Below, in pieces: positions 7,660 through 60,886 of a stretch of DNA of 64,000 bases (its first letter is position 1; each line of letters opens with the position of its first letter). The stretch comes from an uncultured Bacteroidales bacterium (GTDB lineage: Bacteria > Bacteroidota > Bacteroidia > Bacteroidales > SZUA-534): positions 10,388 to 74,387 of the forward strand of contig CBDUWQ010000001.1 in the NCBI GenBank assembly GCA_965370965.1. Reading direction: 5' to 3'. The position numbers were made by a program, and so were the translations under genes. The notes under the pieces are model-generated. The model ran no database searches. It saw only the letters and a list, made by a program, of their open reading frames with translations, and had not been told where the DNA came from.

Positions 7660-9510
7660 TCAATTTTTGCTTAACTCAATTATCATTGCCGATTTAGCTG
7701 GTATAGTAATAGTTGAAAGGTTTTTAAGCTCTTTGTTTGTTATAATATCTTTACCACTTTTATAGTTTTTCATAATTTCGGTAAACCTATCTGTTTTTAG
7801 CTCTGCATCTTCTTTATTGTTATTATTTAAAATAATCATTACTGCATTATTGTCAGTATATCTAAAAAACACATAAATTCCGTTATGGGGTAAAAAGTGC
7901 AAAAGTTTTCCGGTATGTATTGTTTGGTTGCCTTTTCGCCAGTTCAATAAATCTGATAAATAATTATAGGCATCATCCTGCTCTTTAGTCCTTCCTTCTT
8001 GCAAAAAAGCATTTGTAGAATCGCCTTGCCAGCCACCGGGAAAATCTTTGCGTATAAAGCCATGTCCTTCATGCTCTTTGCCGTCCATTAATATTTCAGT
8101 ACCATAATAAATTTGTGGTATTCCGCGTGTGGTTAATAAATAGGACAAGCCCATTTTATATTTCTTAATATCTTTACCCATAGTTTCATAATAGCGGTTT
8201 AAATCGTGGTTATCGGCAAAAATTAAAAGGTTATTTGGGTCGGGATAAGCAAAATCTTGTGCTAAAACATAGTATAAACGAGCCATTCCTTCTGCCCATC
8301 CTTCGTTTTCATTAAAAGCATTACTTATTGCATTATACATTGAGAAGTCGGTAATGACAGGTATATTTGAGTTATATCCGTCATTATTAGTATTGCTTTT
8401 TTGAAAATATGCCGAAATGGGTATTTTTTGAAGCCATGCCTCGCCTACAATATTAAATGTTGGATATTGTTCCATTATGGTTTTACTCCATTTTGCCATA
8501 AAATCTTTATCCGGATATGGTTGTGTATCAACACGAATACCATCAATACCTGCGTACTCAATCCACCAAATACTATTTTGAATTAGGTAAGTTGCAAGCA
8601 TTGGGTTTTTTTGGTTTAAATCGGGCATATTTTCATCAAACCACCCTGTAAGCATTTTGTCTTTATCGTATTCCGATGCATATGGGTCGGTTACCGTTGA
8701 TGCCCTGAAATTTGAGCGGGTAAAATCATCATGTTGGTGAATCCAGTCATGCGATGGTAAATCTTTGTAAAACCAATGACCGCTTCCACAGTGGTTAAAT
8801 ATCATATCCATAATAATTTTTATCCCTTTTTTGTGAGCTTGGTCAACTAAATTTACAAATAGCTCGTTTGTTCCATGGCGCGGGTCGGTTTTGTAAAAAT
8901 CTGAAATAGCATAACCATGGTATGAAAAGGCCTCTTGATTGTTTTCTAAAAAAGGGTTCATCCATAAAGCTGTAAAACCTGTAGATGCAATATAGTCTAT
9001 GTGGTTTATTACACCTTGTAAATCGCCCCCATGCCTTCCGTTAGGGTTATTACGGTCGGCTTTTTCATGCATGCCTTCTATATTGTCGTTTTTAACATTG
9101 CCATTTGAAAAGCGGTCAGGCATTAACAGGTAAATAACATCTGATGCGTCAAATCCTTGATGTATGTTCTTTTTTGTATTGCGTGCTTTTAATTCATATC
9201 CGTGCTCGGCAACTGTTCTGCCTTCTTTTTTAAAAAATATTTGAAATTCCCCCGGCTTGGTTTCTTTATCAATATTTACATATATAAACAGGTAATTTGG
9301 GTTTTCAACTTTTTCTACCTTTTTAATTGCAACCCCTTTGTATTTTATTTCAGGAGTGGTAGTCGATATTTTATTACCATATACCAAAATTTGCAGTTCG
9401 CTGTTTTGCATCCCAACCCACCAGTTCATGGGCTCAACTTTATTAATACTAACCTTTGCCGATAGTGTAATTGCTATTGCAATAAAATAGATTGTTAAAA
9501 AAGCTTTCAT
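7660..9510 (-). CDS. GH13 cyclomaltodextrinase/neopullulanase (SusA-like), periplasmic
   Basis: Signal peptide and a cyclomaltodextrinase N-domain, followed by GH13 regions GGDLQG, FNHCG, GIDGIRVDT, VGEAW, ADNHD. The 616-aa length is close to my recollection of Bacteroides SusA. Confidence 0.85.
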   Translation of the reverse strand: MKAFLTIYFIAIAITLSAKVSINKVEPMNWWVGMQNSELQILVYGNKISTTTPEIKYKGVAIKKVEKVENPNYLFIYVNIDKETKPGEFQIFFKKEGRTVAEHGYELKARNTKKNIHQGFDASDVIYLLMPDRFSNGNVKNDNIEGMHEKADRNNPNGRHGGDLQGVINHIDYIASTGFTALWMNPFLENNQEAFSYHGYAISDFYKTDPRHGTNELFVNLVDQAHKKGIKIIMDMIFNHCGSGHWFYKDLPSHDWIHQHDDFTRSNFRASTVTDPYASEYDKDKMLTGWFDENMPDLNQKNPMLATYLIQNSIWWIEYAGIDGIRVDTQPYPDKDFMAKWSKTIMEQYPTFNIVGEAWLQKIPISAYFQKSNTNNDGYNSNIPVITDFSMYNAISNAFNENEGWAEGMARLYYVLAQDFAYPDPNNLLIFADNHDLNRYYETMGKDIKKYKMGLSYLLTTRGIPQIYYGTEILMDGKEHEGHGFIRKDFPGGWQGDSTNAFLQEGRTKEQDDAYNYLSDLLNWRKGNQTIHTGKLLHFLPHNGIYVFFRYTDNNAVMIILNNNNKEDAELKTDRFTEIMKNYKSGKDIITNKELKNLSTITIPAKSAMIIELSKN

Positions 9511-9528
9511 ATGTTTATAATTTTGGTT

Positions 9529-9734
9529 TTACTACCAATTTAGTGGGTATATATTAAAACAATGAGAATAACACCACAATTCATTGTGGTGGTTTGAAAG
9601 AAATACCTTTATCGCCAAAGGCGATAAAGGCAGAGGTAAGGGTAAATAGTTTTTGTACAACACAATGTTAAAACATGGTGTTATCCTCATCTTAATTGTT
9701 AATATTTTTTTACCCACTAAGTTTGCAGTAGTAC
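9529..9734 (-). other. structured intergenic element with an outer long-range stem and three internal hairpins, one terminator-like; candidate leader, attenuator or sRNA
   Basis: Outer pairing is TTAGTGGGTA (9539-9548) with TACCCACTAA (9711-9720), plus TACTAC (~9530-9535) with GTAGTA (~9728-9733). Internal hairpins lie at 9572-9591, 9606-9630 (perfect 11-bp stem) and 9659-9682. On the minus strand the 11-bp hairpin is followed by UAUUUCUUUC. Confidence 0.4.
9595..9630 (-). terminator. intrinsic-terminator-like hairpin embedded in the element upstream of the SusA-like gene
   Basis: CCTTTATCGCC-TTT-GGCGATAAAGG is a perfect 11-bp stem, followed on the minus strand by TATTTCTTTC. Confidence 0.45.
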
Positions 9735-9787
9735 CATAATTTTTAACCGCAGACCTGCCTACCGTTAGGTAGGAAAAATATTTTAAT
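9734..9787 (-). repeat. degenerate, internally shortened copy of repeat family A
   Basis: Shares the blocks ccataa / acctgcct / a(c)cgttaggtagga / attttaat with the plus strand of the 18381-18466 copy. Confidence 0.45.
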
Positions 9788-9940
9788 CATTTCAGTACCT
9801 TACCAGTTTAAGTCGGGTTTACCTTAAGTTAGGCGTGTGTGTTAAATATTTTTATAATTTTCTTTTATTTATTGTGCTGTTTGTTCTGCCTGTTCGCCAG
9901 TCATACCAACAATAATACCCCAGTTTACAGTTTAATAAAT

Positions 9941-9968
9941 AAGCCCAATTCCAAATGGAATCAGGCTT
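9941..9968 (-). terminator. candidate terminator hairpin downstream of the GH13 lipoprotein gene
   Basis: AAGCC..AATTCC-AAAT-GGAATT..GGCTT nested hairpin ~45 nt after the stop at 10015. The minus-strand tail ATTTATT is a weak U-tract. Confidence 0.4.
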
Positions 9969-10014
9969 ATTAAACAGGCTAACAAACAACCAAAACCATA
10001 AATTAGCAGTTATA

Positions 10015-11388
10015 CTATTTTTTTACAAAAATAACATATCCCCAAGGGGATAGCTTAATACTGCTACCGTTATTAATAACGACATTAGCCTGATTGAACA
10101 AAGATATATAATTACCTTTAATATTATTACCTGCTAACGAAATAGTTTGTTTAATATCCGAAAAATTTAATACCACAATAATTTTATCATCTCCTTTTTT
10201 GCGAATAAAAGAGTAAACAACCTCAGGCTTGGTATTGTCAATTTTGCTAAAACTTCCGCCATAAGCGCCATTCCAAAGGGCTTTATTCTCTTTTTTAAGA
10301 TGCAAAAGTTTTGTGTAAAAACTGGTATAACCAAAATTACCCCACCCAATTGTATCTTTTTCAAAAAACTCCAGCTTTTTTGTTAGTTTGTTTTCCTGTC
10401 CGGAATAAATAAGAGGCATTCCAGGTACTGTTGCACTCAATACAGCCATAACCTCGGCAGCTTTTCCCATACGATCAAACACGGTTCCGTTCCATGAGTT
10501 TTCATCGTGGTTTGAGGTAAAGTTCATATAATAATCATCGGGACTATAAATTGTATCAATTTTTGCAAAATAAGCATCTAAATCGTCAATCACTTTTTTG
10601 CCCTGTGCTATTTCATTCATAATATGATGTAGCTCCCAACCGTAAACCATATCAAAAGCCTGCAAAATATCTTTCGATTCCCATTCGGCAAGCATAAAAA
10701 CAGGTTTAATTGCATCTAAGTGTATTCGTACATTAACCCAAAAATCGGCAGGCACCATACCAGCAACATCGCAGCGGTAGCCATCAATGTCAGCCTCTTT
10801 AACCCAGTATTCAAGACTCTGAATCATATATTCGCGCAAGTCGGGCATATCATAATTCAAATCTGCCACATCTGTCCAGTCTGTATTTGCCGGTACTATT
10901 TTATTCCCCAACGAATCTTTTGTGTACCAATCAGAGTGTTCGGTAATCAACCAATTATCCCAACCTGTATGGTTTGCAACCCAATCAATAATTACTTTCA
11001 TGTTTAATTCGTGTGCATAATTAACCATGTGCTTAAAGTCGTTTAAAGTACCAAAATCGGGATTTACTTTTTGGTAGTCTTGTACAGCATAGTAGCTTCC
11101 CATGGTTCCTTTTCGGTTTGTTTTACTGATGGGGTGTATGGGCATTATCCAAAGTATTTTTACTCCCATCTGTTTTAATCGGGGCATGTGTTTCTCAAAA
11201 GCTTTAAAACTCCCCTCGTGGGTATATTGCCTTATGTTTACCTCATAAATATTGGCATTTTTGCTCCATTCAACATGTGTGTATATTTTATCTGTTGCAT
11301 CTGCTTTAAGCTGTTTAGCATTTGGTGCGCATGAATATAAAGATACTAAAAGGGCAAGACCGATAATGTATAATTTATTTTTTTTCAT
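10015..11388 (-). CDS. GH13 alpha-amylase lipoprotein
   Basis: Lipobox LVSLYSC, then GH13 motifs DWVANHTG, GYRCDVAGMVP, LAEWE, FTSNHDENSW. Confidence 0.85.
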   Translation of the reverse strand: MKKNKLYIIGLALLVSLYSCAPNAKQLKADATDKIYTHVEWSKNANIYEVNIRQYTHEGSFKAFEKHMPRLKQMGVKILWIMPIHPISKTNRKGTMGSYYAVQDYQKVNPDFGTLNDFKHMVNYAHELNMKVIIDWVANHTGWDNWLITEHSDWYTKDSLGNKIVPANTDWTDVADLNYDMPDLREYMIQSLEYWVKEADIDGYRCDVAGMVPADFWVNVRIHLDAIKPVFMLAEWESKDILQAFDMVYGWELHHIMNEIAQGKKVIDDLDAYFAKIDTIYSPDDYYMNFTSNHDENSWNGTVFDRMGKAAEVMAVLSATVPGMPLIYSGQENKLTKKLEFFEKDTIGWGNFGYTSFYTKLLHLKKENKALWNGAYGGSFSKIDNTKPEVVYSFIRKKGDDKIIVVLNFSDIKQTISLAGNNIKGNYISLFNQANVVINNGSSIKLSPWGYVIFVKK

Positions 11389-11402: not shown

Positions 11403-13712
11403 TTAGATGTCAATCAATATTTTTTTATTGCCTAATAATTTATATTTTTTATCGAACACCACTAATTCAACATCTATATTGGCAAAGTTTTCAATCTCAA
11501 CTCTGTTTTTAAATGTATTAACCTTAATCAGGCTTCCGCGAAAACGAATCATAAATGAATAGCTATCCCATGGTTCAGGTATGCTAGGATTAAGGTAAAC
11601 TTTATTATTATAAATGCGCAAACCTCCAAAACCTTGAACTACCGACAGCCATGTTCCGGCCATTGATGTAATGTGCAAACCTTCGGCTACCTCGCTGTTA
11701 TAGTCATCAAGGTCTAAACGCGAAGTTCTCAAATACATTTCGTAGGCCTTATCTGTTTTTTTAAGTTTTGCGGCAATAATACTATGCACGCATGGCGAAA
11801 GCGATGATTCATGTACCGTGCGGGCTTCATAAAAATCAAAATTACGTTTAATGGTATCTAAATCATAATTTTCTTCAAACAGATAAATTCCCTGCAAAGT
11901 GTCGGCTTGCTTAATAAAACACGAGCGTAAAATCCTATCCCACGACCATTTTTGGTTTATGGGTCTATGTTTATTATCAAGGTCGGCAACTAGAACCTGC
12001 TCTTTATTTAAATAGTTATCCTGTTGCAAAAATATGCCAAGCTCTTTGTTTTCAGGATAGTGCATATTCTTCGATATCTCATTCCATTTATCTGTTTCAC
12101 TTTTTTCGTTAAAATTTATTTTTTTAATCAAAGTATCGTATTTTTCAGATGCTGCTTTTTTAACGTAACCTACACATTCGCATGTATAGTCTAAGCACCA
12201 ACAAGCAAGCATATTTGTGTACCAGTTATTGTCAACGTTATTTTCATATTCGTTAGGGCCTGTAACACCTAAAATAACATATTTATTGTACTGTTTTGAG
12301 TATGTTATGCGTTGACTCCAAAAACGCGAAATAGCAATTAACACCTCAAGGCCATAGTCCTTAATATATTTTTTATCGTTTGTATAACGAACGTAATTAT
12401 ATATTGCATAAGCAATTGCCCCGTTTCGGTGAATCTCTTCAAATGTAATTTCCCATTCGTTATGGCACTCTTCGCCATTCATTGTAACCATGGGAAAAAG
12501 GGCTGCACCATTGTAAAAGCCAAGTTTTTTTGCATTTTCAATAGCTTTATCCAATTGCTTATATCTGTAAAGCAATAAATTGCGAGCTACATGTTTATCG
12601 GCAGTAGCAAGATAAAATGGCAGACAATAGGCTTCGGTGTCCCAATAGGTACTGCCTCCGTACTTTTCGCCCGTAAATCCTTTGGGACCGATATTAAGGC
12701 GTTCGTCTTCGCCGGTATATGTTTGGTTAAGCTGAAATATACTAAAGCGTATAGCCTGTTGTGCAGCTATATCATCTTCAATGGCAATATCGCTCTCTGC
12801 CCACTTTGCAGCCCATGCCTGTTTTTGCTCCTCAAGCATGGTATTAAAATGCTTATCCAAAGCTTTGTTTAACTCTTTTTTCGAAACTTCCTCTAATCTG
12901 TTTGCAGGATGGTTAAAAGAAGATACATTGGCGGCAAATTTGTAAATAACCAATTCATCGCCCTTTTTTACATCAACTTCAACTTTGCTTTCGGCGTATT
13001 TTTCACTAAATGATGCCAATGGGCTAAGCTCTATTTTTTTGCCGTTTTTCCAAACCTCATAACGCATTGCTGTTGTTACAACAAACCCTGTTTTTTTTGT
13101 TTTTACTGTTACAAAAGCGTCATAGCCTGATGCATATTGCGAAACACTTTCCCAAAATTTTTCATCGTAATTCGAGTCTGTATTAACAACATCGGCATCA
13201 ATATATGGGGTTATTGATATTTTACCATTAAAATCGATAGCTTTAACAGAGTATTTTATGACACCCAAATTATTATCAACAATACTTAAAAAGCGTTGTA
13301 CATTTACCTTTACAGTATTGTTATTTGATAGTTTTGCAACAAATGAGCGGGTTAAATGCCCTTGGTGCATATTTAAAATGCGTACAAAATCTGATACTTC
13401 AGAATTGTTTAAATCCAGTTCAATATCATTTACATGTATATTTATACCTATCCAGTTTGTGGCATTTAATACCTTTGCAAAGTATTCGGGATAACCATTT
13501 TTCCACCATCCAACTTTGGTTTTATCAGGGTAATAAACACCCGCAATGTAGTTTCCCTGTAAAGTATTGCCCGAGTATTTCTCTTCAAAATTGGCTCGTT
13601 GCCCCATCCTTCCGTTCCCAATACTAAAAATACTCTCTGAAGTGGTTACATTTTCACGCACAAACCCCTCCTCAATAATATTCCATTTATCAAGCTTTAA
13701 GTACTTCTTCAT
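11403..13712 (-). CDS. GH65 glycoside phosphorylase, most likely maltose phosphorylase
   Basis: 769 aa with the GH65 N-terminus ESIFSIGNGRMGQRANFEE and catalytic region, directly downstream of pgmB in one operon. That pairing is the classical maltose phosphorylase / beta-PGM arrangement. Confidence 0.85.
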   Translation of the reverse strand: MKKYLKLDKWNIIEEGFVRENVTTSESIFSIGNGRMGQRANFEEKYSGNTLQGNYIAGVYYPDKTKVGWWKNGYPEYFAKVLNATNWIGINIHVNDIELDLNNSEVSDFVRILNMHQGHLTRSFVAKLSNNNTVKVNVQRFLSIVDNNLGVIKYSVKAIDFNGKISITPYIDADVVNTDSNYDEKFWESVSQYASGYDAFVTVKTKKTGFVVTTAMRYEVWKNGKKIELSPLASFSEKYAESKVEVDVKKGDELVIYKFAANVSSFNHPANRLEEVSKKELNKALDKHFNTMLEEQKQAWAAKWAESDIAIEDDIAAQQAIRFSIFQLNQTYTGEDERLNIGPKGFTGEKYGGSTYWDTEAYCLPFYLATADKHVARNLLLYRYKQLDKAIENAKKLGFYNGAALFPMVTMNGEECHNEWEITFEEIHRNGAIAYAIYNYVRYTNDKKYIKDYGLEVLIAISRFWSQRITYSKQYNKYVILGVTGPNEYENNVDNNWYTNMLACWCLDYTCECVGYVKKAASEKYDTLIKKINFNEKSETDKWNEISKNMHYPENKELGIFLQQDNYLNKEQVLVADLDNKHRPINQKWSWDRILRSCFIKQADTLQGIYLFEENYDLDTIKRNFDFYEARTVHESSLSPCVHSIIAAKLKKTDKAYEMYLRTSRLDLDDYNSEVAEGLHITSMAGTWLSVVQGFGGLRIYNNKVYLNPSIPEPWDSYSFMIRFRGSLIKVNTFKNRVEIENFANIDVELVVFDKKYKLLGNKKILIDI

Positions 13713-13949: not shown

Positions 13950-14597
13950 TTAAACCGATAATTTCATTTTTTCAATATTCATTTCATATAACCCTGGTAT
14001 TACTTTATGTGCTTTTCCCAACACGTCGGAAGTGCCAATACCTATGCAATACATTCCTGCATTTAAAGCAGCTTCAACTCCGGCCTCGGCATCTTCAAAA
14101 ACAATACAATTTTCAGGGTTAGTTTTTAAGCCCTTTGCTGCAAGCAAAAACACCTCAGGGTCGGGCTTGGTTTTTACTGTTTTGGTTCCATCAATTATAA
14201 TATCGAACCACTCGGTTATGTTAAGTATTTTAAGAATAGATACTGCATTTTTACTTGCCGAACCCAGAGCTATTTTATATCCCGATTTTTTTAATTCCTT
14301 AAATAAGCTAAGTACACCCGGCAGTATTTCATCGGGGGTCATTTTTGCTATAAACTCTTTGTACCAGCCGTTTTTTTTATCGGCATATGCCAATTTATCT
14401 TTTTCGTTTAATTCTATATCGCCTATTTTAAGAATAATGTTTATTGAGTCCATACGGCTTACCCCTTTAAGACGCTCGTTGTCTTTCTCGGTAAAATCAA
14501 AACCTAACTCTTTGGTAAGACGTTTCCATGCCAAAAAGTGATACTTTGCTGTATCAACAACAACTCCATCCAAATCAAATATGCAAGCAGTAATCAT
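13950..14597 (-). CDS. pgmB: beta-phosphoglucomutase
   Basis: HAD motif I FDLDGVVVDT, and KGVSRMDS, GSASKN, FEDAEAGVEAA as in PgmB. Confidence 0.9.
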   Translation of the reverse strand: MITACIFDLDGVVVDTAKYHFLAWKRLTKELGFDFTEKDNERLKGVSRMDSINIILKIGDIELNEKDKLAYADKKNGWYKEFIAKMTPDEILPGVLSLFKELKKSGYKIALGSASKNAVSILKILNITEWFDIIIDGTKTVKTKPDPEVFLLAAKGLKTNPENCIVFEDAEAGVEAALNAGMYCIGIGTSDVLGKAHKVIPGLYEMNIEKMKLSV

Positions 14598-14605
14598 ATC
14601 TTTTA

Positions 14606-16105
14606 TTAGTTTTTATCGTCAACAAATTGAGTAACAATGGCTGCTATAAACATTGAAAAACCACCTAATATTAAGGCAAATATTGCATTTCCGTCAAAAA
14701 TATTTTTCACTAAAAATCCGAGAATACTTGCAGCCAATATTTGAGGAATTACAATAAAAAAATTAAATATACCCATGTAAACCCCCATTTTGTTTGATGG
14801 TAATGCGCCTGTTAGCATTGCATATGGCATTGATAAAATACTGGCCCATGCTATTCCAATTCCAATTTCTGCAATCCAAAGCAGTTGTGGGTCTTTAATA
14901 AAATAAAAAAGCAATAAGCCTACACCGCCAAGCGACAAATTAATTGAATGAGCCGTTTTGCGCGAGGTTTTGCGTGCAACAATAACAATTAAAAATGCTG
15001 ATAGTGCGGCAACGCCATTGTAAATAGCAAACAAAATACCTACCCAGTCGGCACCATTATTATAGGCTGCTGAAGTAGTGTCAGTTGTTCCATAATGAAA
15101 AGTTGTAATTGCTGAGGTTGAATAAATCCACATTGCGAAAAGGGCAAACCACGAAAAGAACTGAACAATAGCTAATTGCCCCATTGTTTTGGGCATATTA
15201 AACATATCGTCAATAATCTCATAAAAACCATTCTTTGTTCTGTTGATCTTTTGTAAATAGCCGGTTAAATACTGTATTAATCCAAAAATAATACTACCTA
15301 CCCCACCAATAAAAAGCTCTTTTGCAAGACCATTATATAAAATAAGCCATGTAAAAATTGCACCTCCAAGAATCCAAAAGCTGCCATTTCTTATATATTT
15401 AATATCTCTTTTCTTATTATCTTCTTTACCTGCTTCAAGTTTTTCTTGCTTTTCGGCTTTTTCAAATATTTCCAGTTCCTCCGGCGAATACTCTTTGGTT
15501 GAGAAAACCGTCCAAAGTACTGTTAGCAGAAATATCAAACCTCCAATATAGAATGAAAACTTTACTGAATCGGGTATTTCTCCTGCAGCAGCAGTATTAT
15601 CAATATTAAACCAGTTTGTCATCATCCATGGTAGTGAAGATGCCACCACGGCTCCGGTTCCAATAAAAAAGCTTTGCATTGCAAAACCTGATGTGCGCTG
15701 TTCATTAGGCAACATATCGCCCACAAAAGCCCTAAATGGCTCCATTGATACATTTATTGAGGCATCCATAATCCATAACATACCGGCAGCCATCCATAAA
15801 ACAGGCGAGTTGGGCATAACTAATAATGCAAGTGAAGCTAATATTGCTCCAACAAGAAAAAATGGTCTGCGTCGCCCAAGTCTGTTCCATGTTTTATCAC
15901 TTAAATACCCAATTATTGGTTGAATAATTAACCCGGTTACAGGTGCTGCAATCCATAAAATTGGAATATCTTCAATATTAGCACCAAGAGTTTCAAATAT
16001 TCGACTAACATTAGCATTTTGTAATCCAAAACCAAACTGAATTCCGAGAAAACCGAAACTCATATTCCAAATTTGCCAAAAACTTAACTTTGGTTGTTTT
16101 TCCAT
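14606..16105 (-). CDS. MFS/GPH-type sugar:cation symporter (putative maltose/maltodextrin transporter)
   Basis: Twelve-TM pattern with the SLC45/sucrose-symporter-like motif SDKTWNRLGRRRPF. It is the first gene of the pgmB-GH65-GH13 operon. Confidence 0.8.
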   Translation of the reverse strand: MEKQPKLSFWQIWNMSFGFLGIQFGFGLQNANVSRIFETLGANIEDIPILWIAAPVTGLIIQPIIGYLSDKTWNRLGRRRPFFLVGAILASLALLVMPNSPVLWMAAGMLWIMDASINVSMEPFRAFVGDMLPNEQRTSGFAMQSFFIGTGAVVASSLPWMMTNWFNIDNTAAAGEIPDSVKFSFYIGGLIFLLTVLWTVFSTKEYSPEELEIFEKAEKQEKLEAGKEDNKKRDIKYIRNGSFWILGGAIFTWLILYNGLAKELFIGGVGSIIFGLIQYLTGYLQKINRTKNGFYEIIDDMFNMPKTMGQLAIVQFFSWFALFAMWIYSTSAITTFHYGTTDTTSAAYNNGADWVGILFAIYNGVAALSAFLIVIVARKTSRKTAHSINLSLGGVGLLLFYFIKDPQLLWIAEIGIGIAWASILSMPYAMLTGALPSNKMGVYMGIFNFFIVIPQILAASILGFLVKNIFDGNAIFALILGGFSMFIAAIVTQFVDDKN

Positions 16106-17286: not shown

Positions 17287-18306
17287 TCAAAAACCTGTAG
17301 ATTCACGCTTAATTAAATTAGTTGATATTACCTTTGTTACAGGCGAGTAGTTGTCAATAGTTTTATTAATTCTATCTAACAATAGTTTAGCAGCTTGCTT
17401 ACCCATTTCAAAACCATGCTGGTCTATTGTAGTTAATGTTGGGTCGGTAACATTTGCAACAAAGCCATCGCTAAAACCTACAACCTTAATATCTTTTGGC
17501 ACAATATAGCCATGTTTTTTTACGGCTTTTAACACACCCGAGGCTGTTAGGTCGTTTACTGCAAAAACACCGTCGGGCTTAATGCCCGAATCAAAAATAT
17601 TTTGCATCACTTTAAGTGCTTCATCTCTGCTGTCACATTTCACAATAAGGCTTTCGTCAACAGGAATATTGTATTTTTGCAAAGCCTTTATATAGCCCTC
17701 TTTTCTGCGTTGTCCAATAATAAGGTTCATGGGCGCCGAAAGGTGCACGATTTTTTTACAACCCTCCTGAATTAAATGTTCAGTAATAGTAAATGCGCCT
17801 TTTACATCATCAATTATTACTTTGTCTGTATTTATTTCCTGAATGGCACGGTCAAAGAAAACAAGTGGCAAGTTGTTTTCAAGCAACTCCTTAAAATGGG
17901 TAAAATCGGTAGTGTTTTTTGATACCGATGCAAGAATGCCATCAACCCTACTTGAGGCAAGTGTTTGGATACTTGTTATTTCGCGTTCCTCATTTTCATT
18001 GCTTTGGCAAATCATTACATTATAGCCTGCATTATTACATACATGCTCAATGCCGCTTATTACCGACGAGAAAAAAAAGTGTACTATATTTGGAATTACT
18101 ACACCAATCATATGTGTTTTGCTACTCCTGAGCGAAAGTGCTACGGCATTGGGCTTATAATTATACTTTTTAGCCAAGTTGTGTACTGCCTCCTTGGTTT
18201 TTGTACTTAGGTCGGGGTGGTTTTTTAATGCCCTTGATACGGTAGATGGTGAAATGCCCAATTCGCGGGCAATATCTTTAATGGTAATAGGTCCTTTTTT
18301 ATCCAT
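17287..18306 (-). CDS. LacI-family transcriptional regulator (probable starch/maltose locus regulator)
   Basis: N-terminal HTH ITIKDIARELGISPSTVSRALKNHP plus a periplasmic-binding-fold sugar sensor domain. It is divergent from susC. Confidence 0.9.
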   Translation of the reverse strand: MDKKGPITIKDIARELGISPSTVSRALKNHPDLSTKTKEAVHNLAKKYNYKPNAVALSLRSSKTHMIGVVIPNIVHFFFSSVISGIEHVCNNAGYNVMICQSNENEEREITSIQTLASSRVDGILASVSKNTTDFTHFKELLENNLPLVFFDRAIQEINTDKVIIDDVKGAFTITEHLIQEGCKKIVHLSAPMNLIIGQRRKEGYIKALQKYNIPVDESLIVKCDSRDEALKVMQNIFDSGIKPDGVFAVNDLTASGVLKAVKKHGYIVPKDIKVVGFSDGFVANVTDPTLTTIDQHGFEMGKQAAKLLLDRINKTIDNYSPVTKVISTNLIKRESTGF

Positions 18307-18380: not shown

Positions 18381-18466
18381 CATAAATCCGCAAGCGGATT
18401 ATCTCTATCCACTAATTACACAAACCTGCCTGCCTATAACATTAGGGTAGGATACCACGAATTTTA
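18381..18466 (-). repeat. repeat family A, full-length copy 1 (86 nt)
   Basis: The reverse complement aligns without gaps to 60801-60886 with 77/86 identical positions. It contains the hairpins AATCCG-CTTG-CGGATT and CCT(A/G)(C/T)CC..GGCAGG. Confidence 0.85.
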
Positions 18467-56052: not shown

Positions 56053-56790
56053 TTACTCTTCTTTTTTATCTTCCTTCTTTTCTTCTTTTTTCTCCTCTTT
56101 AGGAGCTTTTTCCTCTTTTTTCGCTTCTGCTTTTGGAGCATCATCTTTTTTTGCTTCAACTACAGGAGTATCATCTTTTTTTGCTTCTGTTTTTGGAGCA
56201 TCATCAGCTTTTTCTTCAACTACAGGTACTTCTTCTTTTTTCTTTTCAACTACAGGAGCATTCTTTGCAGCTTTTTCAGCTTCTTTTGCTTCGGCTTCAG
56301 CTTTAGCTGCATCTTCAGCTTCTTTAGCTAAAGCTGCATTTTTCTCGGTAAAAGCTTTTGCTCTTTCCTCATTAACTTTTCGTTCAGCATCTAAGCGATT
56401 TTTCGAATCTGATGATTGTTCCGCTTTGATTTTATCAACGTTTGCTTGAATTTTTGATGTTTTATCAGCCATCCATTCATTGAATTTTTGTTCGGCAGCT
56501 TCCTCATCAAAAGCACCTTTTCTAACACCTTCCAACAGGTGTTTTTTCATCATAACTCCTTTAAGCGATAAAATCGCCCTTACAGTGTCACTTGGTTGTG
56601 CACCATTTAAAAGCCAATGCAATGCCCGGTCAAAGTTAAGTTCAATAGTAGCAGGATTTGTGTTTGGGTTATAATTCCCCAATCTTTCTATGAACTTACC
56701 ATCCCGTGGCGCCCTGCTGTCGGCTGCAACAATATGGTAGTATGCTCTAGCTTTTCTACCATGTCTTGCTAATCTGATTTTTACAGGCAT
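56053..56790 (-). CDS. rpsP: 30S ribosomal protein S16 with ~150-aa K/E/A-rich repetitive C-terminal extension
   Basis: [42 protein letters not shown] is the S16 core. The tail contains PVVE(E/A)K(A/K)DDAPK(T/A)EAKKDD repeats. I prefer the ATG at 56790. Confidence 0.9.
56125..56265 (-). repeat. in-frame tandem repeats (30/60-nt period) encoding the S16 tail
   Basis: cttctgcttttggagcatcatctttttttgcttcaactacaggagtatcatctttttttg is followed by a diverged second unit. This is a coding repeat, not CRISPR. Confidence 0.7.
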
Positions 56791-58304: not shown

Positions 58305-60650
58305 ATGAAGAATGTATTATTATTAGTAAGCCTATCACTAATGGTTTTAGGCTTAAATGCACAAGAGCTTACAACCGTTAGCTCAAAAAAAAGCAAAACA
58401 GTTAAACAAAAAGTTACCCAAAATAGTACAAAAACCTATGGCGATGTTATTTGGGAAGAAGATTTTAACAAAGACAAATGGTTTAGTACAGTAAAAGAAG
58501 ACGACCAAGGGTATCTGTTAGATACAACAGCCACTATGCCCGTTGGGTGGACATTTATTGACAACACCAACAACAGCTATTATTGGCATTGGAGCGATGT
58601 GGGACCAAGAGGAGCTTATACCTCTGGATATGATGATGATCCTTTTACTCCTAACAATGATTTGCTTGATATGTTACCCGATGAAACCACTATTGATAAC
58701 GGTTTTATGCTGTTAGAAAGTGATTATTTTAACACAACACCCGAAGGAGAAATGGTGGATAACCCAATTGATATGAATACTTATTTTGAATTTGGACCAA
58801 TTAATTTTAGCAGTTATGAGGTAGTAATGTTTAATTGTAAAATATTAAATTATTTATGCTGTGAAACTAATATTTTGGTGGGACTTTATATTAGTAGCGA
58901 TTATAATCCTACCTCAAATACCGGAAATTGGGAACTGTTTAAACTTAACACCCAATATGGTGGTGATTTTACTATAGATAGAGATATGCATATTGATGTA
59001 AGCAATGTAACAGCAGGGCATAATAATGTGTATTTTAGAATTGGTAAAAAACAAGCATCACATTATTTTGTAATTATTGATGATATTAAGTTTTATGAGC
59101 CACCTGTACACAATTTGGAAGTGGAATATGGTTGGGCCGATTATATTTATGATGCAGAAGATGCGGATTATAAGGTTGATGAAACACTTGCATACAATTT
59201 TTGGGGTGGTTATACTGAAATTCCTTATCCGGCAGTATCAAACTTTGTAAAATTCAGAGCCGCAGTATATAATTTTGCAACTAACGATGCTGAAAACAGT
59301 AAGCTTAATGTTAAAATATTTAAAGATGAGGTATTGGATTACTCCATATCATCAGAACCAAAATTGATATCAACAATGGAAAAAGATACATTAAGGGTTT
59401 TTACCGATTATGCGCCTACCGAGGTTGGTAATTATCAAGTATCAATGACTATTACACAAGGCGACGATGATGAATTGTTCGGCAACAATGGTTGGGGTTA
59501 TAACTTTAAGGTTACCGATGGAAATCGATTCTCAAGAGTACGCCACGGTATGGAGGAAGAATTTATTTGGGCAGGACCAAGAGAATGGGTGCTAGGCGGA
59601 AATGATGGCGACAGATGTGTTCAGCGGTTTACAATATCAGATGTAACAGGTAGTGTTCATGTTAAGGGTATAAGTGTTTATATTGATGATTATACCAACC
59701 GCCCCGATGAGATTGCTGCTATTGAAAATGGTGATTTTTCGATGATTGCACATTTATATAAGGTAAACGAAAACGATTCAATTATTGATACAGGAATATC
59801 ATCTGATGAATATACATTAGTAGTTTCAGATACCGCTACATGGGTAACCCTTGACTTTAAAGATGAAGTCAACTTAGTTATTGGCTCAGGGTTATACTAT
59901 GCAGGAATTGAAATATTTACCGGAAATATTGACTTAAGATTTCAAATAGGGGAAGATACAGGTGCTACTACGCAACCAAATGGTGGTGGTTTAGTTTACT
60001 TTAATCCTACTAATCCTATATGGGTTAAAAGTGGCGATAACTATGCTATTGATTTGATTATTGATACCTATAATAGCATTTATATTACATTTAATGTTGA
60101 TATGACAAATGTTGAAACTTTTAACCCGGATAACGATACAGTTTATGTTACCGGAAATTTTGCAGATTGGGACGTACCCGGCACAGGTCAATCACGGATA
60201 TTGACCGATGTAAATAATGATTTAGTGTATTCAGGTATTATTCCAATGATTTCATATTATGGCGAAATGCAATATAAATACTATATAAATTCGGGTTTGC
60301 TTGGTAGCGAATGGGAAGGTGAACCTAACCGTACCTTAAATATTATTGATACCAATATAGTTATTAATCCACCCGATATATTTGGACTATTGCAGAGTAT
60401 TAATGGTAAAAATTTATTAAATAATATTTTAGTTTACCCAAACCCGTTTAGTGGAAATATAGTTGTTAGTAACCTAAGCAATGCTAAACAAATAATGGTA
60501 AGCTATATATTGGGACAAACTATATTATCAATACCGGTAACAGGTAATAAAATTGATGTTGATACCCAGAATCTTAAAAAAGGAGTTTACCTAATAACTA
60601 TTATTGATAATAATAACAACACCATTACTAAAAAAGTGGTTAAAAATTAA
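58305..60650 (+). CDS. secreted multidomain protein with T9SS C-terminal sorting domain and a CBM20-like carbohydrate-binding module
   Basis: Signal peptide. The N-terminal domain resembles choice-of-anchor-J/MAM-like modules (VIWEEDF..MPVGWTFID). It also has YVTGNFADWDVPG..YKYYI..EWEGEPNRT (CBM20-like) and the C-terminal tail ILVYPNPFSGNIVV..GVYLITIID..KKVVKN. Confidence 0.7.
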   Translation: MKNVLLLVSLSLMVLGLNAQELTTVSSKKSKTVKQKVTQNSTKTYGDVIWEEDFNKDKWFSTVKEDDQGYLLDTTATMPVGWTFIDNTNNSYYWHWSDVGPRGAYTSGYDDDPFTPNNDLLDMLPDETTIDNGFMLLESDYFNTTPEGEMVDNPIDMNTYFEFGPINFSSYEVVMFNCKILNYLCCETNILVGLYISSDYNPTSNTGNWELFKLNTQYGGDFTIDRDMHIDVSNVTAGHNNVYFRIGKKQASHYFVIIDDIKFYEPPVHNLEVEYGWADYIYDAEDADYKVDETLAYNFWGGYTEIPYPAVSNFVKFRAAVYNFATNDAENSKLNVKIFKDEVLDYSISSEPKLISTMEKDTLRVFTDYAPTEVGNYQVSMTITQGDDDELFGNNGWGYNFKVTDGNRFSRVRHGMEEEFIWAGPREWVLGGNDGDRCVQRFTISDVTGSVHVKGISVYIDDYTNRPDEIAAIENGDFSMIAHLYKVNENDSIIDTGISSDEYTLVVSDTATWVTLDFKDEVNLVIGSGLYYAGIEIFTGNIDLRFQIGEDTGATTQPNGGGLVYFNPTNPIWVKSGDNYAIDLIIDTYNSIYITFNVDMTNVETFNPDNDTVYVTGNFADWDVPGTGQSRILTDVNNDLVYSGIIPMISYYGEMQYKYYINSGLLGSEWEGEPNRTLNIIDTNIVINPPDIFGLLQSINGKNLLNNILVYPNPFSGNIVVSNLSNAKQIMVSYILGQTILSIPVTGNKIDVDTQNLKKGVYLITIIDNNNNTITKKVVKN

Positions 60651-60800: not shown

Positions 60801-60886
60801 TAAAATTCGTGGTATCCTGTCCTAATGTTATAGGCAGGCGGGTTCGTGTAATTAATGGATTGGTATAATCCGTTTGCGGATTTATG
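60801..60886 (+). repeat. repeat family A, full-length copy 2 (86 nt)
   Basis: 77/86 gapless identity to the reverse complement of 18381-18466. It ends 101 nt upstream of the dnaE ATG. Confidence 0.85.

Follow-up and report, generated by a model that had tools for sequence, protein, structure and literature searches.

A very probable MITE insertion in the leader of a SusA-like gene in a Bacteroidales maltose/starch locus

The maltose/starch locus and its spacer

The window, by which we mean the whole 64-kb stretch of DNA analysed here, is AT-rich (34% G+C) and contains a maltose/starch locus. On the minus strand, the order is MFS transporter, HAD-family hydrolase, GH65 enzyme, GH13 amylase, spacer and SusA-like gene (Table 1). 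Named relatives of the SusA-like protein belong to Salinivirgaceae, Marinilabiliales and Bacteroidales MAGs, from which the host would be a Salinivirgaceae-like bacterium within the Bacteroidales (Marinilabiliales in NCBI naming); exact-protein look-ups for other strains, made with the SusA-like and amylase proteins of the window, returned no record. Past a LacI-family regulator gene, the plus strand carries genes for SusC, SusD and a GH13 protein with a T9SS tail.

The spacer between the two same-strand GH13 genes is indeed present at its predicted length of 504 nt. The original prediction placed in it a four-way junction of about 205 nt (9529-9734) with an internal terminator, and suggested that this element might act by attenuation or antitermination within the starch operon, encode a PUL-associated sRNA, or represent a structured repeat. 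Here, we describe the element and its relatives at other loci, and consider which of these readings the evidence favors.

Table 1. Coordinates of the genes and features discussed in the text (positions in the window)
Feature	Position	Strand	Remarks
SusA-like GH13 cyclomaltodextrinase/neopullulanase gene	7660-9510	minus	Pfam Cyc-maltodext_N, Alpha-amylase, Cyc-maltodext_C
Spacer between amylase and SusA-like genes	9511-10014		504 nt; both flanking GH13 genes on the minus strand
Target-site duplication, left copy	9517-9524		ATAATTTT, 8 bp; same as 9736-9743; abuts element end
Element, very probably a MITE	9525-9735		211 bp, non-coding; alignment A1 with six other copies; long hairpin on both strands
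Left terminal inverted repeat	9525-9549	plus	GGTTTTACTACCAATTTAGTGGGTA; 20/25 against reverse complement of right end, ungapped
Internal hairpin	9572-9591		CACCACAAT..ATTGTGGTG, 8-9 bp; kept, slightly longer, in sibling copies
Central hairpin	9604-9632	minus	11 perfect bp at 9606-9630 (13 pairs with extension), 3-nt loop; then UAUUUCUUUC
Internal hairpin	9659-9682		about 9 positions with one mismatch
Right terminal inverted repeat	9711-9735	plus	TACCCACTAAGTTTGCAGTAGTACC
Perfect Bacteroidetes -7 box TAnnTTTG	9718-9725	plus	TAAGTTTG; motif scan; in right repeat, pointing outward, away from SusA-like gene
Target-site duplication, right copy	9736-9743		ATAATTTT, 8 bp; abuts element end
Terminator-like hairpin	9938-9971	minus	AAGCCTGATTCCA..TGGAATTGGGCTT; inverted repeat just downstream of amylase gene, outside the element; conserved in L024, L027, L029
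GH13 amylase gene	10015-11388	minus	
GH65 maltose phosphorylase gene	11403-13712	minus	
HAD-family hydrolase gene	13950-14597	minus	likely beta-phosphoglucomutase
MFS transporter gene	14606-16105	minus	
LacI-family regulator gene	17287-18306	minus	

Folding of the element

The individual stems of the predicted structure can all be recognized. The outer stem of 10 perfect bp pairs TTAGTGGGTA (9540-9549) with TACCCACTAA (9711-9720), one base away from the coordinates first proposed, and it has the expected 6-bp extension, formed by TACTAC (9530-9535) with GTAGTA (9729-9734). The three local hairpins enclosed by this stem are also present, each within one or two bases of its predicted position. 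Moreover, when the minus strand was folded, as had been recommended, the structure proved to be far beyond chance: the predicted energy is -71.5 kcal/mol compared to -36.9 +/- 4.3 kcal/mol for shuffled sequences (z = -8.1), with 0 of 200 shuffles as good.

While the stems hold up, the junction itself does not. The minus strand folds best into a single long, imperfect hairpin that is capped by the central hairpin and in which the segment at 9659-9682 pairs with 9560-9591 instead of closing on itself. Forcing the sequence into a four-way junction gives -61.8 kcal/mol, which is approximately 10 kcal/mol worse. In addition, the plus strand folds nearly as well as the minus strand (-70 kcal/mol, z = -6.8), as would be expected of a DNA palindrome, unlike a strand-specific RNA.

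Boundaries, terminal repeats and flanking duplication

The boundaries of the element were established by alignment with six other copies found elsewhere (alignment A1). Similarity opens at GGTT(C/T)TACTACC and closes at GCAGTAGTACC, and the flanks beyond these points are unrelated; the element is thereby slightly longer than the predicted 9529-9734 (Table 1). Its left boundary lies 14 nt from the SusA-like ATG, and its pair of ends is GGTTYTACTACC...GCAGTAGTACC.

The terminal inverted repeats are imperfect and 25 nt long, and the inverted repeat can be traced for about 37 nt at 78% complementarity. The right end is identical at 25 of 25 positions in seven copies from four sources; since the six metagenome copies were fetched with a 21-mer from the right arm, the copy in a Bacteroidales MAG (L015), which was found with another pattern, is the one independent test of this identity. 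The left-end variant of the window copy recurs in L021, L020 and L015. The difference between left and right ends is the same in both of the subfamilies described below, and in this respect the ends resemble the two end repeats of an insertion sequence.

Abutting the element on each side is the same 8-bp sequence. For two 8-mers located 219 nt apart in the window, the empirical chance of an 8/8 match is 7.8e-5, rising to 1.3e-3 for at least 7/8 and 1.3e-2 for at least 6/8. Flanking duplications also occur at the other three complete copies: AAAAAAGT / AAAAAAAT at L021 (7/8), TAAGTAAT / AAAGTAAG at L020 (6/8), and GCTTTTAA / GTTTTTAA at L015 (7/8, provided that the terminal GG is missing there, a 2-nt shift of the left boundary). 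The longest open frames vary in strand and frame between copies, and so there is no conserved ORF. The 61-aa ORF of the window copy, which was rightly judged from the outset to be almost certainly an artefact of the palindromes, has no counterpart in the sibling copies.

Repeat finding and a fuzzy search for the terminal repeats (up to five mismatches) revealed no further copies within the 64-kb window. The copy count for the source organism covers this window only, and the source genome was not among the genome-collection matches.

The window does contain other repeats, which we record as separate observations. One family consists of two inverted 86-nt copies that are 90% identical (18381-18466, plus strand; 60801-60886, minus strand), each with the palindrome AATCCGCAAGCGGATT and a hairpin CCTGCCTA..TAGGGTAGG. 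The first copy sits between the LacI-family regulator gene and SusC, and the second is located 150 nt downstream of a gene (58305-60650) for a CBM20 (starch-binding) protein with a T9SS tail. The 86-nt repeat, which had no Rfam match, may serve as a regulatory site common to the starch regulon, or may be a further small mobile repeat. The stretch at 9750-9795, which adjoins the spacer element, is loosely similar (ACCTGCCTACCGTTAGGTAGGA...TTTTAAT) to the 3' half of the 86-nt repeat (ACCTGCCTGCCTATAACATTAGGGTAGGA...TTTTAAT), a likeness that BLAST did not report and that may be due to chance. Finally, a tandem repeat with a 30-nt period (56081-56341) lies in overlapping ORFs of both strands and probably encodes a low-complexity, repeat-rich protein.

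Copies at unrelated loci

Six sites other than that in the window were found, in three metagenomes and one Bacteroidales MAG, all of them in unrelated gene neighborhoods. Together with the window copy, this gives seven insertion sites with different flanks: the window, four sites in the metagenome Ga0256845, L020, and L015 (the same locus as L022).

A scan of the genome collection, using the two outer-stem 10-mers as the search pattern, uncovered one true relative, L015, and the MAG that contains it has a single match to the strict pattern. Compared to the window copy, L015 matches at 26 of 26 nt of the right end and at 25 of 29 nt (86%) of the left end; its interior is unrelated yet palindromic. 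The ATG of a gene of the glycerol-kinase type (FGGY family) lies about 15 nt downstream of this copy. Most matches in the genome scan came from Clostridiales/Ruminococcaceae and are tandem arrays with a 64-nt period, which we treated as an unrelated family caught by the search pattern. These rumen arrays (L001 826-1186; also L005, L007-L010, L012-L014, L016 and L017) occur several per genome and have a unit of about 64 nt, consisting of TTTAGTGGGTA, about 35 variable nt and TACCCACTAAA. They have a 10-11-mer in common with the inner repeat of the spacer element, which we think is a coincidence arising from the search pattern.

The scan of metagenomes with the 21-mer from the right arm returned six loci (L018-L023). 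Four contigs of Ga0256845 carry copies (L018, L019, L021 and L023), each with a different right flank, and three of the four contigs break inside the repeat. Where they overlap, L019, L021 and L023 differ at one of 145 shared positions, while L018 retains the right end only. The interiors of the Ga0256845 copies are homologous to that of the window copy, with 79% identity. L020 and L022 constitute a second subfamily, and what the two subfamilies have in common is their ends, with no conservation of the interior. The lengths of the copies other than that in the window range from 190 to 365 bp. With seven copies known, the family is apparently rare.

The sibling copies are also informative about the internal hairpins. 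The hairpin at 9572-9591 is kept in them, but the central hairpin is private to the window copy, the matching stretch being missing from L019, L021 and L023. As for the predicted internal terminator, a hairpin followed by UAUUUCUUUC does exist, and a simple scan rated it as terminator-like on the minus strand, but its absence from the closest siblings marks it as a feature of this one copy and not a function of the family.

Copies have been found upstream of ATGs, beside stop codons and, in L021, in place of the last codons of a regulator gene. At L021 2294-2312, the left end of the element provides the final codons and the stop of a 444-aa ORF (978-2312), indicating that the insertion replaced the C-terminus of the protein. 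A different kind of variation is seen at L020 1629-1993, in which an extra central segment of about 165 nt, including the GC-rich hairpin CGCCCCGATAAAAATACGGGGC, is not found in L015; this segment may be a nested insertion or a longer ancestral form.

Orthologous amylase/SusA-like junctions

A comparison with the spacers of related genomes, also recommended in the original prediction, speaks against conservation of the element. We recovered six orthologous loci (L024-L029), with SusA-like protein identities of 67-83%, in which the neighboring genes are kept and the element is absent (6 of 6). The spacer is 110 nt in L024 (83% protein identity) and 13 nt in L025, and in the remaining four loci (L026-L029) the amylase and SusA-like genes are separated by an esterase-like gene. 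When the window spacer was compared to these loci by BLAST, only 81 nt beside the amylase stop codon matched, with 88% identity to L024. At these levels of protein identity, the orthologues cannot be aligned with the window around the point of insertion, and no base-precise empty site was found among them. An element-free allele would read ...GGTTAAAAATTATAAACATATG..., in which AAAATTAT occurs once on the coding strand.

Just downstream of the amylase gene, within the 81-nt matching stretch and outside the element, lies a second terminator-like hairpin (Table 1), which bears on transcription of the SusA-like gene. Since it is conserved in three of the orthologous loci, transcription may be partly halted, as a conserved feature, after the amylase gene and before the esterase or SusA-like genes that follow. 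Separately, about 190 nt of the window spacer (9744-9935) has no counterpart in the 110-nt spacer of the closest relative. A tblastn search for a remnant of the esterase gene in this segment gave no match; the segment may hold the promoter of the SusA-like gene.

Identity and proposed origin of the element

The element is small, has inverted repeats at its exact ends and a flanking duplication of fixed length, contains neither a transposase gene nor a conserved ORF, and is dispersed over several unrelated sites. On these grounds, we consider it very probable that the element is a MITE inserted in the leader of the SusA-like gene, and that its hairpins reflect inverted-repeat DNA rather than an evolved RNA switch. 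The third of the originally proposed options, a structured repeat, was thus the right one, and can now be given a more precise form, a MITE bounded by terminal inverted repeats and flanked by a target-site duplication of 8 bp.

Searches for an autonomous partner that shares these ends covered the window, the fetched loci, viral contigs, plasmids and the metagenome matches, and gave no such insertion sequence. In particular, scans of viral contigs with either arm gave 0 matches, plasmid BLAST gave none, and a full-text literature search for the end sequences returned chance matches to primers only. Many MITE families are orphans, and a cognate insertion sequence supports membership but is not required for it.

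How would such an element have arrived at this position? Based on the established biology of DDE transposons, a transposase encoded elsewhere would bind both terminal repeats and then excise or copy the element. Insertion into an AT-rich target would involve a cut staggered by 8 bp, the repair of which would yield the duplication. In the present case, the element would have landed 14 nt upstream of the SusA-like ATG, in a junction that is otherwise short (13-110 nt) or esterase-bearing in this lineage. The hairpins would then simply be the RNA or DNA image of the inverted-repeat architecture, with no selection for regulation of the starch genes.

Transcription of the SusA-like gene and alternative readings

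Even if the element arrived as a MITE, it could influence the gene next to it. As the original prediction had noted, the minus strand has no perfect TAnnTTTG box between the central hairpin and the ATG; the best match is TAAATTGG (5/6), located at the left end of the element (9542-9535). The relatives, with their spacers of 13-110 nt or an intervening gene on the same strand, suggest that transcription of the SusA-like gene enters from upstream. If so, the SusA-like leader would carry a hairpin of -71 kcal/mol that includes the copy-specific stem and the U-tract, and this hairpin could lower or uncouple SusA-like expression as a side effect. Should the SusA-like gene be attenuated in this way, the effect would be an accidental result of the insertion rather than a regulatory design that has been conserved.

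A stronger version of this idea is that the window copy has been exapted as a working attenuator or processing site, with termination at about 9595-9603 on the minus strand or RNase III cutting in the long stem, thereby lowering SusA-like expression or uncoupling it from the maltose operon. Co-transcribed MITEs are processed or terminate transcription in other bacteria, the Correia elements of Neisseria being one example. The 11-13-bp central stem with its terminator-like rating and UAUUUCUUUC tail, the position in the leader without a perfect -7 box before the ATG, the layout of the relatives' junctions, and the fact that the window copy has the central hairpin in addition to what its siblings carry are all consistent with such a role. 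However, a hairpin found in a single copy in a single genome carries no sign of selection, the U-tract is interrupted, and a promoter could sit in or at the edge of the MITE, where the 5/6 match is located. We regard exaptation as unlikely, although it fares better than the other alternatives.

Perhaps the family as a whole acts as a mobile regulatory cassette in Bacteroidales, with an outward -7 box in the invariant right end and a hairpin body that would impose termination or processing on what lies downstream. A perfect box, TAAGTTTG, is present in the right repeat, and in L018 and L020 a gene begins 31-41 nt past the right end, in the same direction as the box. The window averages about 0.93 perfect -7 boxes per kb on each strand, however, and so the box by itself says little. 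We think this proposal somewhat more doubtful than exaptation of the window copy; if it were true, the MITE would have made the SusA-like gene an attenuated unit within the starch regulon.

Another possibility is a dispersed palindromic repeat that was not moved by DDE transposition, either a REP/BIME-like element mobilized by a RAYT-type enzyme or a foldback generated by recombination. The palindromic, intergenic and multi-copy nature of the family would suit this explanation, as would the searches that found no cognate transposase. REP/BIME elements, however, are palindromic units of 20-40 bp that are usually clustered and lack a target-site duplication. The units of the present family, at about 190-365 bp with 25-nt ends, are far larger; they occur singly, and four independent copies have 8-bp direct duplications on their flanks. 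The asymmetry of the ends is also conserved across subfamilies, as in the end repeats of insertion sequences. Considering these differences, an origin of this kind is very improbable.

It is even more difficult to see how the element could be an evolved cis-regulatory leader RNA of the starch/maltose operon, be it an attenuator, an antiterminator target or something riboswitch-like. The strong fold of the minus strand, the terminator-like hairpin within the leader, and the setting in a starch-utilization locus, with a LacI-family regulator gene and SusC/SusD genes nearby, do count in favor of this reading. Nevertheless, the element is absent at all six orthologous junctions and homologous copies lie beside unrelated genes (a glycerol-kinase-type gene, the 3' end of a regulator gene and others). 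In addition, folding of the antisense strand is about as strong, the copies do not conserve the terminator hairpin, and the whole is flanked by a target-site duplication. Covariation is of little use in judging this reading, since the copies fall into just three distinct types and compensatory change is imitated by a palindrome in the DNA. Nor did the suggested search for a known RNA family help this reading: Rfam gave nothing at gathering thresholds over the whole window, and a permissive search of 9400-10100 gave best E values of at least 0.3, with scores far under threshold. Orthologous conservation, strand-specific conserved hairpins and a match to a curated RNA family are thus all missing among the loci and databases compared, and attenuation or antitermination as a designed feature of the operon is highly improbable.

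Least probable of all is an independent PUL-associated sRNA gene in the spacer. In its favor are the stable structure, which on the minus strand has a terminator-like hairpin on its 3' side, and the perfect -7 box of the plus strand. Against it, the minus strand has no -7 box ahead of the structure, and the plus-strand box, situated at the extreme end of the element and facing away from it, would not transcribe the structure. No promoter of its own marks off a discrete transcript, and no Rfam family matches. The two subfamilies share their ends without conserving the interior, and dispersed copies at unrelated loci with a target-site duplication suit a transposon.

With insertion of a MITE as the preferred reading, a strong predicted RNA structure in a polysaccharide-utilization locus would be the footprint of a transposon, and a false riboregulator lead would be removed. 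The family would be one not described before, from marine or sediment-type Bacteroidales, with exact ends and an 8-bp duplication that allow it to be masked in annotation and used in the search for its parent. It would also provide a natural case of a MITE in the leader of a gene for a starch-degrading enzyme.

Comparison with known systems

Bacterial MITEs are well known, and those described from Bacteroidota include the MITEs of Porphyromonas gingivalis (PMC4596501, PMC2575886). The window element has different end sequences from the Bacteroidota MITEs of this kind, while it has much in common with bacterial MITEs generally: a size of about 200 bp, no coding capacity, terminal inverted repeats, a target-site duplication, intergenic location, near-identical copies, and a tendency to break short-read assemblies. 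The 8-bp AT-rich duplication, the ends starting with GG and the repeats of about 25-37 bp would presumably fit the ISL3 family in particular, and also IS1595 and IS256, which we take only as a lead.

The likeness to Bacteroides attenuators and PUL-associated sRNAs consists of the starch-utilization locus, a hairpin with a U-tract in a leader, and strong predicted structure. The window element differs from these systems in that it is neither orthologously conserved nor strand-specific, lacks a promoter that would yield a discrete RNA, and has copies beside unrelated genes.

A closer parallel comes from the Correia elements (CREE) of Neisseria, which are MITEs of about 100-150 bp with 26-bp inverted ends that often lie just upstream of genes. 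They are co-transcribed as long hairpins, have promoter-like boxes in their ends, and can affect the stability or termination of transcripts. Correia elements duplicate TA and are present in hundreds of copies per genome, whereas the present family duplicates 8 bp and is known from seven copies; and RNase III processing and promoter activity of Correia elements have been demonstrated experimentally, whereas the features of the window element are seen here from sequence alone. With these differences in mind, and by analogy, the Correia element appears to be the best functional model for what the window copy may do to the SusA-like gene.
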